A DNA stretch of 64,000 bases, from contig CP070744.1 in NCBI GenBank assembly GCA_020348265.1, positions 3,197,866 to 3,261,865 on the forward strand, given 5' to 3'. The translations under genes were made by a program, and so were the position numbers. Shown piece after piece: positions 31,004-36,773 of this stretch. The notes under the pieces are model-generated. The model made no database searches, was not told where the DNA came from, and worked only from the letters and a program-made list of their open reading frames with translations. The DNA comes from Phycisphaerales bacterium (GTDB lineage: Bacteria; Planctomycetota; Phycisphaerae; UBA1845). Position 1 is the first letter of the stretch. Each line of letters begins with the position of its first letter.

Positions 31004-32674
31004 ATGACAACCGCAACTCCGAGTGTCGACGCTACTCGTACAGTCCACGCACCGCGTGGTGCCGAGATTACCTGCAAGGGCTGGCAGCAGGAAGCTGCGA
31101 TGCGCATGCTGATGAACAACCTCGACCCCGATGTCGCGGAGAATCCGGCTGAACTGATCGTCTATGGAGGCAGCGGGAAAGCGGCTCGGAGTTGGCCGGA
31201 TTTCGACCGCATTGTGGCCTCCCTCAAGCAGCTCGAAAACGACGAAACACTACTAGTTCAATCCGGACGGGCCGTAGGAATCGTCAAGACTCACAGCGAC
31301 GCACCTCGTGTGTTGATCGCCAACTCCCTGCTTGTACCCCACTGGGCCAACTGGGACGAATTCCGTCGTCTCGAAGCCAAAGGCCTCACCATGTATGGGC
31401 AGATGACCGCAGGAAGCTGGATCTACATCGGCACGCAGGGCATCCTCCAGGGTACCTACGAGACCTTCGGTGCCGCCGCCCGCGAGCATTTCGACGGTTC
31501 ACTCGCAGGACGCCTGGTCATCACCGGCGGGCTTGGTGGGATGGGGGGAGCCCAACCGCTGGCCGCCACCATGAATGAAGGCGTGTGCCTGTGCGTCGAA
31601 GTGGATAGGGCTCGCATCGAGCGGCGGATGGAGACACGCTATCTGGACCGCTGGACGGCTGACCTGGATGAAGCTCTGGGCTGGACGAGCGAAGCGGTCA
31701 AAGCGAAGACTCCGCTATCAGTTGGCCTGCTGGGCAATTGTGCGGACGTTCTGCCGGAGTTGGTGCGCAGAAACGTCATACCTGATGTGCTTACTGATCA
31801 GACTTCCGCCCATGACGCTTTGAAGGGATACGTACCAAACGGGATGACCTTCACCGAAGCGGTCAAGCTCCGCCAGACGGACCCCGACCGCTACATTACC
31901 GAGTCGATGCGCTCGATGGCTGAACACGTCCAGGCCATGCTCGAGCTGCAAGAACGTGGGGCGATTACCTTCGATTACGGCAACAATATCCGCGGCCAGG
32001 CCAAGCTCGCCGGGGTGGAGAACGCTTTCGACATTGTCGGCTTCGTTCCGCTTTTCATCAGACCGTTGTTCTGCGAGGGGCAGGGGCCCTTCCGCTGGGC
32101 GGCCCTCTCCGGCGACCCCAAGGACATCGCCCGCACCGACCAAGCTGTGCTAGAGACCTTCCCCGAGAATGAGCATCTATGCCGGTGGATTCGTCTCGCC
32201 AGGGAGCGTATCGCCTTTCAGGGCCTGCCCGCGCGAATCTGCTGGCTGGGCTACGGTGAGCGAGACAAGATGGGATTGGTGTTCAACGATCTCGTCGCCA
32301 AAGGTGAGATCTCCGCTCCGATCGTCATTGGCCGAGATCACCTCGACTGTGGCAGCGTAGCCTCGCCCAACCGCGAAACCGAAGGTATGAAGGACGGGTC
32401 CGACGCGATTGCCGACTGGCCCATACTCAACGCCCTGGTCAACACCTGCTGCGGGGCGAGTTGGGTGTCGGTGCATCACGGCGGGGGGGTGGGGATAGGC
32501 TATGCCCTTCATGCCGGACAAGTGATCGTCGCGGACGGCACCAAGGAGGCCGCCGACCGCCTCAAGCGCGTCCTCACCGCCGACCCCGCAACGGGCATCT
32601 TCCGCCACGTGGACGCCGGCTACGAAAAAGCCCAGCAAATCGCCGAGAAGCGCGGCGTGAAACTGCCGGGATGA
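31004..32674 (+). CDS. hutU: Urocanate hydratase
   Basis: [65 protein letters not shown]. Confidence 0.98.
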
Positions 32675-32848
32675 TGATCAAGAAGAAACCGTTTGACTAG
32701 CGGCCGAGGAGCGGTTAAGTCGAAATACCTTGCATCGGGACAAAGTCGCGTTTCCAGAATGGAGGGCTGAGGTATCCCCTCACGCAACGGCATATCGGCA
32801 GCGCAGTTAAAGCCGTATCTAAGAAGGTGCGGATACAAAGGCCCACTG

Positions 32849-35332
32849 TTGGCCCAAGATTATCGCTATAACGGCAGTTCAGTCGAGCTTGCCGGGTTTG
32901 CCGACCTGCCAACAGACACAAGGTCCGCATGCATTGGCGTCCTGGACGCGAGAGGCAACTCGGCAACAGCGGTAGAGGGGTGTCGAGAACTCGGCGCGCC
33001 GGTGATTCTGATCTGCCAGCAGGACAAAGTCGAATGGTGGCAACAGACGACCGAGCAACCGGAGCATCAGGAAACCATTGCTCCGAATAAGCTGGATCGA
33101 TTCTTCGAACACCACAGGAAGGACTTTGGCCCCGATCGCATCTTCCGCGCGAAGACAATAGGGCGTTTTGACCGTGCGTACCAACTGTCGTTTGTTGACA
33201 TCGGGCTCATGCCACTGGTTGAGAGCGAGATCGGCGACAAGGTCAGCAGGCTTGTTGGACGAGTGGTCAAGGACTTTGTGCACGACCTCAAGCGGCCGAG
33301 ACTGTCCGATGCCGAGTCAAGGCAGATCTTCAAGTCAGTGTTCTGGCTACTCGCAGCCAAGATTTTGCACGACAAGAAGAACGTAGAGAACTTCAAGAGG
33401 ATCGACCTGCTGGATTTCGACGCAGTTTTTGACAGAGTTGCGAAGCACTACGCTGCTGCAGTAAGCCCGCTACCCAGAAGCAAAGCCTGGAGATCGGCAC
33501 TTGACCGTGCCGCACAGACAGTCAGCGAATTCGCCCATCTTGGGAACATCTCGACAGAAGCTCTCGCCTACGTATACGAGAATACGCTCATTGATAAGGC
33601 GTTGCGCCAGAAACTCGGGACCCACAGTACGCCGTCCTACTTGGTGGACTACATCCTTTGGCAACTGTCGCCGTGGATCAGCGAGATTGAAGAGGACAAG
33701 CGCCATATCTTCGAACCTGCCTGCGGGCATGGTGCATTCCTCGTTGGGGCAATGCGATTACTGCGGTTCCTGTTGCGGGGCACCGACAGCGCGAAGCACC
33801 ACCGATACTTGAAGGCCCACGTTCGAGGCATAGAAATAGATCCTTTTGCCCTGGAACTAGCGAGACTTTCCTTGACGCTGGCGGACATACCAAACCCCAA
33901 CGGGTGGAGACTCACGGAAGCGGATATGTTCGAGTCGGACATTCTGCAGAAAGAAGCCAAGAAGGCACGGATTCTGCTGGCCAACCCGCCGTTTGAAGCT
34001 TTCACGAGCAAAGAGAAGGCAAGGTACCGCAAAGCGGGCAACGACGTCGGTACGAACAAGGCCATCGAAATGCTCGAACGGACGATCGCCCATCTGCCGG
34101 TGGGGGCGGTCTTCGGGGTAGTCGTGCCTCAGGGTGTGCTCCACAACAAGCAAGCATGCGATGTTCGCAGACAAATGGCCAGCGAATTCGAGCTTTCAGA
34201 GATCTGTCTCTTTCCTGACAAGATGTTCAAGTTCTCCGATATGGAGACCACGATTATTCTTGGGCGCAGGCGGCGCACTGACCGCGCAGCAACGGGGCAA
34301 GTGCAGTACCGCCGAGTCCGCGAAAGCGGCATGTCAAGGTTCCGCGAATCCTATACTGTCAGCACGGATCGTCTGATTCCGCAAGTGCGGTTCCTGGGTA
34401 CAGGCGATTCAAGTTTCAGGATTCCCGAACTGGAGAACCTGTGGGACGCGTTGGACGCCCGCCGCAAACTTTCCGACCTGGCAAGTATGGGACAAGGCTT
34501 GGCACATAAGGGCAAGGACCTCCCCGAGGGAGCATGGACGATCCGTAGCCCCAAGAGGAAGCGCGATACACCCGGTTTTGCCGACGTTCCGAGGAACTTG
34601 CAGATCTGGGGGCTTCCCGAAGAGGTTGGGGTGAACGTCGACAGCAGTGTCCTACTTCGCATGCGTGCTGGGCTACCGCCCGGTGAACCACAAGTGTTGC
34701 TCAACTACGCACCAGTCAGCCGCGGGCCTTGGAGACTCAAGGCAATCATCGATTCTGACGACCATGCAGTTACAAGCCGTTTCATCGCTATTAGGCCGAG
34801 TAAGCCAAGCATCTCAGTGGAGTTCCTCTGGGCCCTCCTCAACTCCCCCGTGGCGAACGCCTTCGCGTATTGCCATTTGGGAAAGCGCGACAACCTTGTC
34901 GGCACAATGGGGCAGATGCCCGCGCCGGACCCGGCCGCGCGCGACGTCGAGTCCATCGTTCGGGCAGCCTGCGCCTATCGGAGGCTCGTGAAGAGGTTCG
35001 ACGAATTCATGGTACCGGACCCCGACGAGTCAGCCGTGAGAAGTGCGCTACTAGCCATGGATGCTGAAGTACTGCGGCTCTACGATCTACCCCCGCGTCT
35101 GGAACGCGAACTCCTCGATCTGTTCGCCGGCAAAGTACGCAAAGGCGTCGGGTGTACGTTCAAACAATACTTCCCCGCCGACTTCACTCCGTTTGTCCCT
35201 CTCCACGAATACCTCTCGGACGAGTACCGCCGATCTACTGCCGGGGAGATGCGCAAGCGCCATGTACCCGTGACATCACCGAACGTACTTCAGGCGCTCG
35301 ACCGCGCAGTCGAGGCTTTCGGGGAGGAGTAG
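32849..35332 (+). CDS. N6-adenine DNA methyltransferase with C-terminal TRD (type IIG/Eco57I-like architecture)
   Basis: LG.HSTP, motif I FEPACGHGAFL, motif IV NPPF, WALLNSP TRD-like segment; start uncertain. Confidence 0.85.
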   Translation: MAQDYRYNGSSVELAGFADLPTDTRSACIGVLDARGNSATAVEGCRELGAPVILICQQDKVEWWQQTTEQPEHQETIAPNKLDRFFEHHRKDFGPDRIFRAKTIGRFDRAYQLSFVDIGLMPLVESEIGDKVSRLVGRVVKDFVHDLKRPRLSDAESRQIFKSVFWLLAAKILHDKKNVENFKRIDLLDFDAVFDRVAKHYAAAVSPLPRSKAWRSALDRAAQTVSEFAHLGNISTEALAYVYENTLIDKALRQKLGTHSTPSYLVDYILWQLSPWISEIEEDKRHIFEPACGHGAFLVGAMRLLRFLLRGTDSAKHHRYLKAHVRGIEIDPFALELARLSLTLADIPNPNGWRLTEADMFESDILQKEAKKARILLANPPFEAFTSKEKARYRKAGNDVGTNKAIEMLERTIAHLPVGAVFGVVVPQGVLHNKQACDVRRQMASEFELSEICLFPDKMFKFSDMETTIILGRRRRTDRAATGQVQYRRVRESGMSRFRESYTVSTDRLIPQVRFLGTGDSSFRIPELENLWDALDARRKLSDLASMGQGLAHKGKDLPEGAWTIRSPKRKRDTPGFADVPRNLQIWGLPEEVGVNVDSSVLLRMRAGLPPGEPQVLLNYAPVSRGPWRLKAIIDSDDHAVTSRFIAIRPSKPSISVEFLWALLNSPVANAFAYCHLGKRDNLVGTMGQMPAPDPAARDVESIVRAACAYRRLVKRFDEFMVPDPDESAVRSALLAMDAEVLRLYDLPPRLERELLDLFAGKVRKGVGCTFKQYFPADFTPFVPLHEYLSDEYRRSTAGEMRKRHVPVTSPNVLQALDRAVEAFGEE

Positions 35333-35335
35333 AGC

Positions 35336-35845
35336 TTGGACGGCTATCTGCTCGACACCAACATCGTCAAGTATTGGCACGATACAAGGTGCCCCGAGCA
35401 CGGACTCGTCGCAGCAAGAGTAGAGCAACTCGACGAGAGGGCGCCACTGTATGTCTCAGTGATCACACTCGGGGAGATTGAATTCGGACACCGAGCCGAG
35501 TCGCCCATTACCACCGAGAGCCAAAGGGAATTCTCCAGCTTCGTCAGCGAACGGCTCCCGGATAGGCTCAAAGTAGACAGGCACTCGGTCAGTCACTATG
35601 GCGACCTTCGGGCACGCTTGTTTGAGAAGTATGCTCCGATTGGCAAGCGCGCGAAAGTCAAGCGTCCGGAGCAGCTAATCGACCCGGTAACGGCGAAGAC
35701 CCTCGGCATCCAAGAAAATGACCTCTGGATCGCGGCCCAGGCACTCGAGAGAAACCTAGTCCTCGTCACTCACGACAAGATGGACCACATTCGCAAAGTG
35801 GCCAGCGAACTCCGTATCGAGGACTGGGCAGAAGTCCATTCGTAA
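35336..35845 (+). CDS. PIN-domain (VapC-like) ribonuclease
   Basis: YLLDTNI, SVITLGEI, ENDLWIAAQA, LVTHD (all four acidic residues present); SD GGAGGAG inside the MTase 3' end. Confidence 0.9.
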   Translation: MDGYLLDTNIVKYWHDTRCPEHGLVAARVEQLDERAPLYVSVITLGEIEFGHRAESPITTESQREFSSFVSERLPDRLKVDRHSVSHYGDLRARLFEKYAPIGKRAKVKRPEQLIDPVTAKTLGIQENDLWIAAQALERNLVLVTHDKMDHIRKVASELRIEDWAEVHS

Positions 35846-36086
35846 CAAGGGTGAAGTTCTGATAAGTGTGCCAGACTCTCCGCAAGCTAACGAGCCCCAC
35901 CATTCCGCCGTATATACTATTGCTTCCTGACAACGCTCAAGACAGCGCCCACGGCACCATGCTATAGGACCTGCACGAATTCAAACTGACCGCGGCGCGG
36001 GGTTGTTCTGAAACGTATACTTCTTCCGTGTTGGAGGTCCAACCGGCCTCTTGGAGACTCGTCCACACGAAGGAAAGGACTTGTTG

Positions 36087-36773
36087 ATGAGCGCTAACCA
36101 AACCGGCGAAGGGCAGGAGAACAGAAAGAGCAGGCGGCGCACCTATCTGATCAATCCGTCCTTCCAGTGGAAGTACACGGGCGCTATTGCTCTGACCGTC
36201 TTTATTCTCTGTTCATCGGTCGGAGTGATGCTTTTCGGGGCGTTGTACCAGCAGGCCCGGGCGATGGTCATCAACCCCAACGTAAGCCACCTCTGGGAGA
36301 ACACCCGGCTCATCGTTTTCTCGTCAGTAGGCTTTGCGGGTGTCACTGCAGCAGCAATCGCCCTTTGGAGCATCGTCGCGACCCACCGCATCTGCGGCCC
36401 GCTGCACGTGCTGGAGGGTTACATGGAAGAACTGGTCAAGGGGCGCTTCCCGAAGATCAGAGCCCTGCGCCAAAAGGACGAATTCAAACATTTGCACTCG
36501 ACATTCACCAGCACGGTTGATTCACTGAAACGGCGCAAGCAAGCACAACTCGCCACCTTGACCAAGATCCTGGAAATCGCCGGATCAGCAAGAGATGCCG
36601 AAGAAGAGAGCCTTAGGAGCGCCCTTAGTCAGATAACCACGCGCGTGGAGGGGCTGCGCTCACAAGTGGCCGACGTCTTGGGTGAGACGCTCGATAGCCT
36701 ACCCCTCGCGAAGCAGCAGGATTCCGAAACGGCGCCCCCGTCACCCCGGCCACTTGCGGAAGCCGGCGTTTAG
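36087..36773 (+). CDS. 2-TM membrane protein with HAMP-like domain, no output domain
   Basis: RRRTYLINPSFQWKY, two TM helices, THRICGPL...L..G...LRQKDEF. Confidence 0.7.
   Translation: MSANQTGEGQENRKSRRRTYLINPSFQWKYTGAIALTVFILCSSVGVMLFGALYQQARAMVINPNVSHLWENTRLIVFSSVGFAGVTAAAIALWSIVATHRICGPLHVLEGYMEELVKGRFPKIRALRQKDEFKHLHSTFTSTVDSLKRRKQAQLATLTKILEIAGSARDAEEESLRSALSQITTRVEGLRSQVADVLGETLDSLPLAKQQDSETAPPSPRPLAEAGV

Follow-up and report, generated by a model that had tools for sequence, protein, structure and literature searches.

What has a DNA methyltransferase to do with a toxin that comes without an antitoxin? The question is raised by two adjoining genes in a 64,000-nucleotide (nt) stretch of the Phycisphaerales bacterium contig CP070744.1. 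This whole stretch is called the window here; all coordinates are positions in it, and both genes lie on its + strand. The first gene, taken as an open reading frame (ORF) of 827 amino acids (aa; 32849-35332), encodes an N6-adenine DNA methyltransferase (MTase), and the second, an ORF of 169 aa (35336-35845), encodes a PIN-domain protein; each has a TTG start. We think it probable that the two form one module, in which the MTase is a scaffold with a fused antitoxin tail and the PIN protein is its cognate toxin, and which serves either abortive-infection defence or addiction. According to this explanation the last 38 or so residues of the MTase would be a covalently attached antitoxin. By binding the product of the coupled downstream gene, a VapC-type PIN ribonuclease, they would keep it silent, and the DNA-modification scaffold would thus keep hold of the toxin. 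As to the role, we favour abortive infection as a defence against phage, in which perturbation of the MTase would free the PIN protein and bring translation to arrest. The perturbation might come from engagement with many unmethylated sites of incoming DNA, from an anti-restriction protein of the phage, or from the tail being proteolysed. Post-segregational addiction that stabilises the methylase gene is a close alternative to the defence role, and the computational analysis suggests the one or the other.

The association of the two genes was examined from both sides. A pattern scan for the MTase in one genome per species gave 299 loci, of which the best 80 were analysed. The gene at the MTase stop codon was a PIN of the window type ('PIN-A') in 40 of them, an HNH protein of about 200 aa in 32, a longer HNH protein in one and an unrelated PIN ('PIN-B') in one; the other six were beyond assessment, the contig ending there or the MTase being truncated. 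A gene of toxin type is therefore found at the MTase stop codon in 74 of these 80 species-representative loci. The HNH partners match Pfam HNH, and in PADLOC they match PtuB, the effector of Septu, best. On the PIN side, 74 metagenomic PIN-A loci had at least 150 nt of upstream sequence; the C-terminus of an MTase lies directly upstream in 70, and PIN-B intervenes in the remaining four. Co-occurrence of the homologues is thus near-obligate in both directions, and with well over 100 independent instances in several phyla the adjacency is more than chance. Among the first six PIN contexts, four had the PIN directly 3' of an N6_Mtase/MmeI_Mtase gene, in unrelated neighbourhoods, and the other two, from a single sample (ERZ21271597), had a frameshifted MTase upstream by tblastn. 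In these two (L001 3494-6501 and L002 1165-4175) the MTase frame is in pieces and the PIN is intact, and in L002 a 233-aa ORF that retains the C-terminal tail still abuts the PIN. Either long-read indel errors or decay of the methylase with retention of the tail-bearing fragment would account for this. No MTase-PIN fusion protein occurs among the top 120 MTase homologues, the longest of which has 915 aa.

The coupling of the genes is close. The junction reads GGGGAGGAG TAG AGC TTG: the Shine-Dalgarno sequence GGAGGAG (35323-35329) lies inside the final MTase codons, the stop codon occupies 35330-35332, and after a gap of 3 nt the PIN gene begins in the same frame. The placing of the Shine-Dalgarno sequence and the gap are as a preliminary description of this DNA had them. 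A spacing of +3 nt is also the commonest one in the PIN-A loci (21 of 44). Among the PIN-A loci (L003-L086 and the window) 39 are tightly coupled, and 30 of these have a gap from stop to start of 0, 3 or 6 nt, which keeps the frame (binomial p 3e-8, with kinship among the loci ignored). The HNH partners differ in this respect from PIN-A, most of them overlapping the MTase by 4 nt (ATGA). The in-frame spacing could reflect a constraint of termination and reinitiation, read-through that now and then yields a tethered fusion, or the later splitting of an ancestral fusion. A Pfam search of the small flanking ORFs gave no family match to any of them and no third gene is conserved across the homologous loci examined, which bears out the earlier observation that no VapB-like gene flanks the pair.

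The MTases share a C-terminal helical region and then diverge into tails that are specific to the partner. With PIN-A the tail is about 38 aa long ('..Y.RSTA...SP..L.AL..A.EAF.EE'); with HNH it is about 70 aa long and unrelated in sequence; the long HNH partner goes with a tail of its own, of about 100 aa; and with PIN-B there is a tail of A type plus 47 extra residues. Tails of A type and B type stand in tandem in three MTases (L065, L132 and L149). In L132 and L149 the two-tail MTase is followed by PIN-B and then by PIN-A, the order of the toxins being opposite to that of the tails (A, B); in L065 PIN-B alone follows, yet both tails are present. Three-gene variants with two PIN genes were seen at L132 (204-3986), L149 (1-2373), L121 and L160. 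Partner labels are strongly clustered on the tree of the MTase core, and its well-supported branches force at least four switches of partner. Among 50 paired PIN-A loci, the distances between tails correlate with those between PINs with an r of 0.78, against 0.49 for the adjacent 260 residues of the core. The partial correlation of tail and PIN is 0.71 (permutation p 0.0005, kinship ignored), and four control segments of tail length gave values from -0.11 to 0.11.

Analysis of two sister cassettes proved informative as to where such tails may have come from. In one family member, L188, the tail ends in '...RPIWERMAELAAALPEEAIADLPTDGASQLDHYLYGAPK' and a third type of PIN follows. This tail is 54% identical over 39 aa (pairwise E 2e-13) to the C-terminus of a protein of 102 aa, itself free-standing, from a plasmid of the cyanobacterium Stanieria. 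The 102-aa protein is encoded directly upstream of a PIN gene, the product of which is 42% identical (E 2e-41) to the PIN of L188, and a Microcystis plasmid has the same arrangement. The other sister is a family member of 945 aa on a plasmid of Rhizobium sp. Q54, 34% identical to the window MTase (E 1e-88). Its residues 902-929 match PF09722, 'Antitoxin Xre/MbcA/ParS C-terminal toxin-binding domain' (E 1.5e-4), and its stop codon overlaps the start of a RES-domain toxin gene (E 1.5e-16). The RES toxins of the Xre-RES/ParST/MbcTA systems are not nucleases, and the slot downstream of the MTase is therefore a toxin slot and not a restriction-nuclease slot. By sequence homology, these two tails are of antitoxin-like origin.

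The tail thus switches with its partner, co-varies with the PIN and has sisters that resemble the ends of antitoxins, as a toxin-neutralising segment might. Together with the near-obligate linkage, these properties support the proposal, made in the preliminary description, that the MTase, perhaps by its C-terminal tail, restrains a PIN protein that lacks an antitoxin. Also in keeping with that proposal, the homologues co-occur, there is no separate small antitoxin, and the N-terminal domain of the MTase has no conserved nuclease motif. Most likely the A-type tail would act by binding and inhibiting its own PIN.

A pseudo-complex of the two proteins was modelled with AlphaFold2 (AF2), in which the in-frame TAG was read through and a paired multiple sequence alignment (MSA) of 50 in-frame loci was supplied. 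The MTase-PIN fusion model has a predicted template-modelling score (pTM) of 0.85, and residues 790-814 of the tail are ordered in it, with a predicted local distance difference test (pLDDT) of 75-90. The end of the tail is an acidic patch. Docking of the tail onto a basic insertion in the PIN is what we infer and is not itself a result. The insertion, of about 25 aa, had been remarked on before as foreign to canonical VapC. It is real, and positions 98-120 of the PIN profile have no counterpart in solved VapC structures, but other PINs have it too: of about 1000 relatives in the database the best 120 are all 161-179 aa long, which makes the insertion a trait of a large family. It is conserved, with P117 and L123 invariant, and is modelled as short helices (pLDDT 67-79).

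In other respects the PIN resembles VapC. It matches PF01850 (E 8.6e-10), and all four acidic catalytic residues, D7, E47, D129 and D147, are kept as had been claimed, being invariant in 34 sequences together with E127. A profile search places VapC 3zvk (8e-13) and the tRNA-fMet VapCs as the nearest solved proteins, and the model resembles Shigella VapC with a Foldseek TM of about 0.8. The substrate would be RNA, probably tRNA, and the protein is predicted to act as an RNase toxin.

The MTase has hundreds of full-length relatives that are 47-57% identical to it, and matches the Pfam families N6_Mtase (PF02384, E 2.5e-18, residues 237-487) and MmeI_Mtase (PF20473). Its two motifs were correctly recognised from the outset: FEPACGHG at residues 288-295 and NPPF at residues 379-382 are both found, and their key residues (E289, G293 and N379-P381) are invariant in the family. 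Profile matches of the catalytic domain are to CamA, HsdM and M.BseCI. The region of the target-recognition domain (TRD) gave Foldseek matches to M.BseCI 7qw7 (1.7e-6), CamA 7lni (1.8e-6) and MmeI 5hr4 (4.7e-5), and further ones to BrxX, HsdS and M.TaqI. The first half of the TRD (residues 491-600) is the most variable part of the protein, with a mean pairwise identity of 0.39, where the catalytic domain has 0.56 and the TRD's second half 0.57, as might be expected if target specificity diversifies.

At the other end of the protein, the AF2 model of the N-terminal 265 residues, built from an 84-sequence MSA (pLDDT 93.8), consists of an alpha/beta domain and then four long helices. Its best Foldseek match is the type IIL enzyme DrdV 7lo5 (E 0.028, over the whole length with the helical spacer included), and others are the nuclease domains of HsdR (fragment 3h1t, E 0.37), NucC and SfsA; all of these matches are weak, that to DrdV included. 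No (D/E)xK catalytic motif is conserved in this domain among the 84 sequences, which agrees with the initial remark that a PD-(D/E)xK motif is not apparent there; the invariant residues D23, K102 and D117 (827-aa numbering; D53, K132 and D147 in the alignment) have a non-canonical arrangement. An active restriction nuclease at the N-terminus was rejected on the lack of a conserved catalytic motif, and the assignment of the fold is itself weak. In overall shape this DNA methyltransferase is therefore like a type IIL enzyme, with the position of the nuclease filled by a domain without a recognisable active site.

An architecture that mirrors the type IIL enzymes with a dead nuclease domain could also belong to a split restriction-modification (RM) system. 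The small downstream protein would then be a restriction subunit, recruited by the tail to the MTase/TRD, that cuts unmethylated target DNA on behalf of the degenerate N-terminal nuclease. A third of the relatives do pair with an HNH nuclease, a fold found in true restriction enzymes, and the MTase keeps its catalytic motifs, which one would expect were self DNA protected by methylation. Such a system is nevertheless improbable when the partners are considered. In the window the partner is a VapC-clade PIN, and its nearest solved relatives are toxins that cleave tRNA; one member of the family pairs with a RES toxin and no nuclease, some members bear two PIN toxins together, and the HNH partner is closest to PtuB and not to known restriction endonucleases (REases). 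In addition, two of the tails are homologous to the toxin-binding ends of a classical antitoxin and of a protein in the antitoxin position, and these are inhibitory modules in toxin-antitoxin (TA) systems of type II. No PIN-fold restriction enzyme is on record, and in the 2017 census of PIN proteins the PIN nucleases were not seen with type II RM genes, nor had a PIN restriction module been demonstrated (Matelska 2017, PMC5499597). Papers on BREX diversity and on DefensePredictor have PIN effectors only in other contexts.

The start of the MTase gene needs separate consideration. The ORF of 827 aa that was first described at 32849 is present, but the coding frame reaches further upstream, since homologues have about 25-30 extra N-terminal residues with a conserved 'L.P.L..CGY' motif and this motif is encoded in frame at 32801-32836, upstream of the TTG at 32849. 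From the ATG at 32759 the frame soon runs into a TGA (32768-32770), and it is open from 32771; a genome-wide search, by which the source genome has a single copy of the module, likewise gives an open frame of 853 codons. The TGA at codon 4 is real, because it recurs in a Logan assembly made independently from the source sample and is common to a relative that is about 93% identical, on a contig from another sediment sample; a sequencing error was ruled out by the same two findings. The sequence GGAGGG at 32761-32766 is a candidate Shine-Dalgarno for a non-canonical start further downstream. This suggests that the MTase may be translated by non-canonical initiation or by reinitiation after a mini-ORF of three codons. 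An ATC at 32774 is placed 7 nt after GGAGGG, and an ATA at 32792 aligns exactly with the ATG of homologue P0125.

Might the pair then be a decaying remnant, its MTase silenced or truncated by the stop at codon 4 and both genes without function in the source genome? There is no ATG, GTG or TTG between the TGA and 32849, and the N-terminal CGY segment is encoded by all 83 homologues examined. Against this, both ORFs are otherwise intact, with no family-invariant residue lost, the relative at about 93% identity has the TGA as well, and the differences between the strains are mostly in third codon positions, also on the 5' side of 32849. If the built-in antitoxin is real, moreover, an intact toxin without its partner should be lethal to the cell, and so the MTase, or at least the part of it that bears the tail, must be made. 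Decay is on these grounds a very improbable explanation. The features of the locus are collected in Table 1.

Table 1. Features of the MTase-PIN locus in the window (columns: feature, position, strand, remarks)
Vestigial start, ATG GAG GGC TGA	32759..32770	+	ATG aligns with the start of full-length homologues; stop is codon 4
MTase/TRD scaffold protein, N6-adenine DNA MTase	32771..35332	+	853 codons from stop to stop; first canonical start TTG 32849, giving 827 aa
N-terminal alpha/beta domain, PD-(D/E)xK-like fold	32798..33157	+	AF2 and Foldseek; position of the type IIL nuclease domain
Helical spacer, four long helices, from N-terminal domain to MTase domain	33206..33529	+	AF2 secondary structure; DrdV match spans the region
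Gamma-class N6-adenine MTase catalytic domain	33557..34318	+	PF02384, PF20473; motif I FEPACGHG 33710-33733, motif IV NPPF 33983-33994
DNA target-recognition domain and C-terminal helical domain	34331..35215	+	AF2 model, Foldseek
Partner-specific MTase tail, residues 790-827, SDEYRRSTAGEMRKRHVPVTSPNVLQALDRAVEAFGEE	35216..35329	+	proposed built-in antitoxin or PIN-docking peptide
Coupling junction	35323..35338	+	Shine-Dalgarno GGAGGAG, TAG stop, AGC, TTG start
VapC-type PIN toxin, 169 aa	35336..35845	+	PF01850; catalytic D7, E47, D129, D147 intact
Family-specific basic insertion in PIN, KYAPIGKRAKVKRPEQLIDPVTAKTLG	35627..35710	+	about residues 98-125

The module is conserved and mobile, and its spread is horizontal. 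Planctomycetota, Acidobacteriota, Chloroflexota, Myxococcota and Actinomycetota are intermixed on the MTase tree. Elsewhere in the phylum only nine of 400 genomes have a family member, and six of 40 close relatives do. It is absent from the same-genus genome and is carried by three rhizobial plasmids, for which the RefSeq labels are 'N-6 DNA methylase' and 'PIN domain-containing protein'. The Agrobacterium plasmid copy adjoins a Shedu gene, a helicase and a Mu transposase. The MTase has no match in 50,697 phage records, and a phage-borne origin was rejected on that result. The window itself has hutU on one side of the pair and an unrelated membrane protein on the other, the GC content is in no way unusual, and a scan of 32400-36300 for promoters and terminators did no better than on shuffled sequence. 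In a test for an empty site or synteny in the same-genus genome G001 and in G003, a homologue of the downstream gene was present with hutU and the other neighbours not nearby, so that no insertion boundaries could be drawn.

Some of the plasmid loci have additional genes. On the A. tumefaciens plasmid pAtA74a_a (L191 1015-1512) a hypothetical gene of 165 aa overlaps the MTase start by 4 nt and makes a three-gene cassette. It has a faint Trypco2 match only (E 0.005) and is without a counterpart in the window, where from the end of hutU (32674) to the ancestral ATG (32759) there are no more than 85 nt. On the Rhizobium sp. Q54 plasmid (L193 1-2797) a 'restriction endonuclease BseRI' gene is directly upstream of the MTase-RES pair and a 477-aa protein without a Pfam match is directly 3' of it; this region may be a small defence island.

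These surroundings bear on the question of whether the module is for defence at all. It might be purely selfish, an MTase-antitoxin fusion and a stable toxin that only make loss of the methylase lethal (post-segregational killing), with no sensing of phage. Classical RM systems and TA systems are both known to be addictive (Matelska 2017, PMC5499597, citing Mruk and Kobayashi), and the evidence for a tail-bound toxin that this would need is the same as for the explanation we prefer. Most loci, that of the window included, are solitary insertions among housekeeping genes and outside defence islands, which counts against defence and for addiction, and there are copies on plasmids and beside transposases. 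Yet a large MTase with intact catalytic motifs, a TRD and a conserved N-terminal domain would be a costly carrier for a peptide of 38 aa, defence systems typically swap their effectors while a sensor-like scaffold stays constant, and two of the plasmid copies adjoin Shedu or REase genes. Addiction and nothing more is thus unlikely in our view. For defence speak the same exchange of effectors on a constant scaffold, the horizontal spread, and the Shedu and REase neighbours on plasmids.

A number of further points weigh against a built-in antitoxin and its use in defence, as set out above. The support for the A-type tail binding and inhibiting the PIN is indirect, and the co-variation of tail and PIN, in which kinship was ignored, could reflect exchange of cassettes instead of contact. 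An interface between the two is not visible in the fusion model, because the AF2 output came without an inter-domain error map or contacts. A tblastn search of 72,556 plasmids for a free-standing counterpart of the A-type tail gave chance-level matches only (E at least 2). The B-tail had no plasmid match, and the plasmid match of the L188 tail (C-tail) has a database E of merely 0.03. The isolated A, B, HNH and C tail peptides match nothing in Pfam or NCBIfam, which tells against the proposal in the case of the A-type tail, and the PF09722 match of the Q54 member, at 22.1 bits, is slightly under the gathering score of 24.5. PADLOC has no model for the PIN. Expression of the MTase in the source genome is uncertain, given the stop at codon 4 and the lack of a canonical start before about residue 31 of the family consensus.

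A more far-reaching version of the defence role would see in the family a distinct class of immune module, with toxins as the effectors of a restriction-modification logic. Its MTase/TRD would methylate sites of the host and read how DNA is methylated, and the nuclease domain, now dead, would have become a sensor or docking element; many unmethylated sites on invading DNA or a phage anti-restriction protein would bring about a conformational change that withdraws the antitoxin tail and frees the toxin of the locus, here a PIN RNase, elsewhere an HNH or RES protein, and sometimes two toxins together. Discrimination of self from non-self by methylation would in this way be coupled to abortive infection and not to DNA cleavage. 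We hold this for possible but somewhat unlikely.

Comparison with known systems helps to place the module. It is like VapBC (Shigella/Salmonella VapC/MvpT, Rickettsia VapBC2, H. influenzae VapBC-1) in having a VapC-clade PIN with four acidic residues, and in the translational coupling of the toxin gene to an upstream gene, which is here the proposed neutraliser. Unlike VapBC, it has neither a separate VapB gene nor a DNA-binding antitoxin domain: where a type II TA system has a small antitoxin gene with such a domain upstream, the module has an MTase of about 850 aa, the last 38 or so residues of which are the proposed neutralising peptide. The PIN also differs from solved VapCs in its conserved basic insertion. 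With the type IIL and IIG enzymes (MmeI 5hr4, DrdV 7lo5), CamA and M.BseCI the MTase shares an N-terminal PD-(D/E)xK-like domain, a helical spacer, a gamma-class N6-adenine MTase and a TRD, and as in type IIG/IIL the gamma-class domain, the S-adenosylmethionine (SAM) motif, NPPF and the TRD are in one chain. It differs in that its N-terminal domain is without the catalytic D...(D/E)xK of an endonuclease and is a weak match in fold (E 0.028), in always being partnered with a separate gene of toxin type, and in its partner-specific tail.

In logic the proposal resembles PrrC-EcoprrI and RloC, where an RNA-cleaving suicide nuclease is kept inactive by a DNA-modification enzyme and, for PrrC-EcoprrI, released by a phage anti-restriction factor. 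The comparison with PrrC made in the preliminary description holds as an analogy of this kind, but there is no relation between the proteins. In PrrC an ABC-ATPase and its own nuclease domain are fused, and it associates with a multi-subunit type Ic RM enzyme with active restriction; it has no fused antitoxin-like tail, and swapping of its toxin is not known. The nuclease of the window is a 169-aa PIN without an ATPase domain, and the locus contains no hsdR or hsdS. The Xre-RES/ParST/MbcTA systems have in common with the plasmid-borne Q54 member an Xre/MbcA/ParS C-terminal domain, there present as a tail, and the RES toxin that follows. The window cassette differs in pairing an A-type tail with a PIN, and a whole MTase scaffold takes the place of the antitoxin's Xre DNA-binding domain. 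CapRel-type fused TA systems and PanA, 'Panacea' (PMC10440598), are alike in the modular recombination of toxins and neutralisers and in that the larger protein may act as a toxin-releasing sensor. In PanA one antitoxin domain serves many toxins (PMC10440598); here a constant scaffold that is not an antitoxin bears exchangeable short tails, each with its own toxin.

Existing models do not capture the pair. In PADLOC-DB v2 the MTase matches generic models only (MTase_I/II, mad2, PglX) and the PIN matches none, and the NCBIfam matches, PglX/MAD2 for the MTase and VapC for the PIN, are below threshold. The match to the PglX model is partial (41 bits against a cut-off of 400), and with hutU and a membrane protein as neighbours there is no PglZ/BrxC set as in BREX. 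A search of the literature, full text included, found no published description of such a module. It is probably a TA system, apparently undescribed, with its antitoxin grafted onto an RM-type methylase, and a distinct class of methylation-sensing abortive-infection system is a possibility.

If the tail truly is a built-in antitoxin, restriction-modification and toxin-antitoxin, the two oldest classes of bacterial conflict system, would be joined in one molecule, and a large enzyme would serve as a natural scaffold for exchangeable 'plug-and-socket' toxin cassettes (PIN, HNH and RES). Current annotation and defence-finding tools treat such MTase and PIN genes as unrelated. Type IIG-like methylases that appear as 'orphans' and VapC genes that appear 'antitoxin-less', by the hundred in Planctomycetota, Acidobacteriota and rhizobial plasmids, would be accounted for by the module. 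It would also offer a testable route to an old question, how a cell that senses foreign DNA or anti-restriction factors can couple this to the release of a toxin. In addition, short cognate tails of this kind could be compact and specific inhibitors of their toxins.

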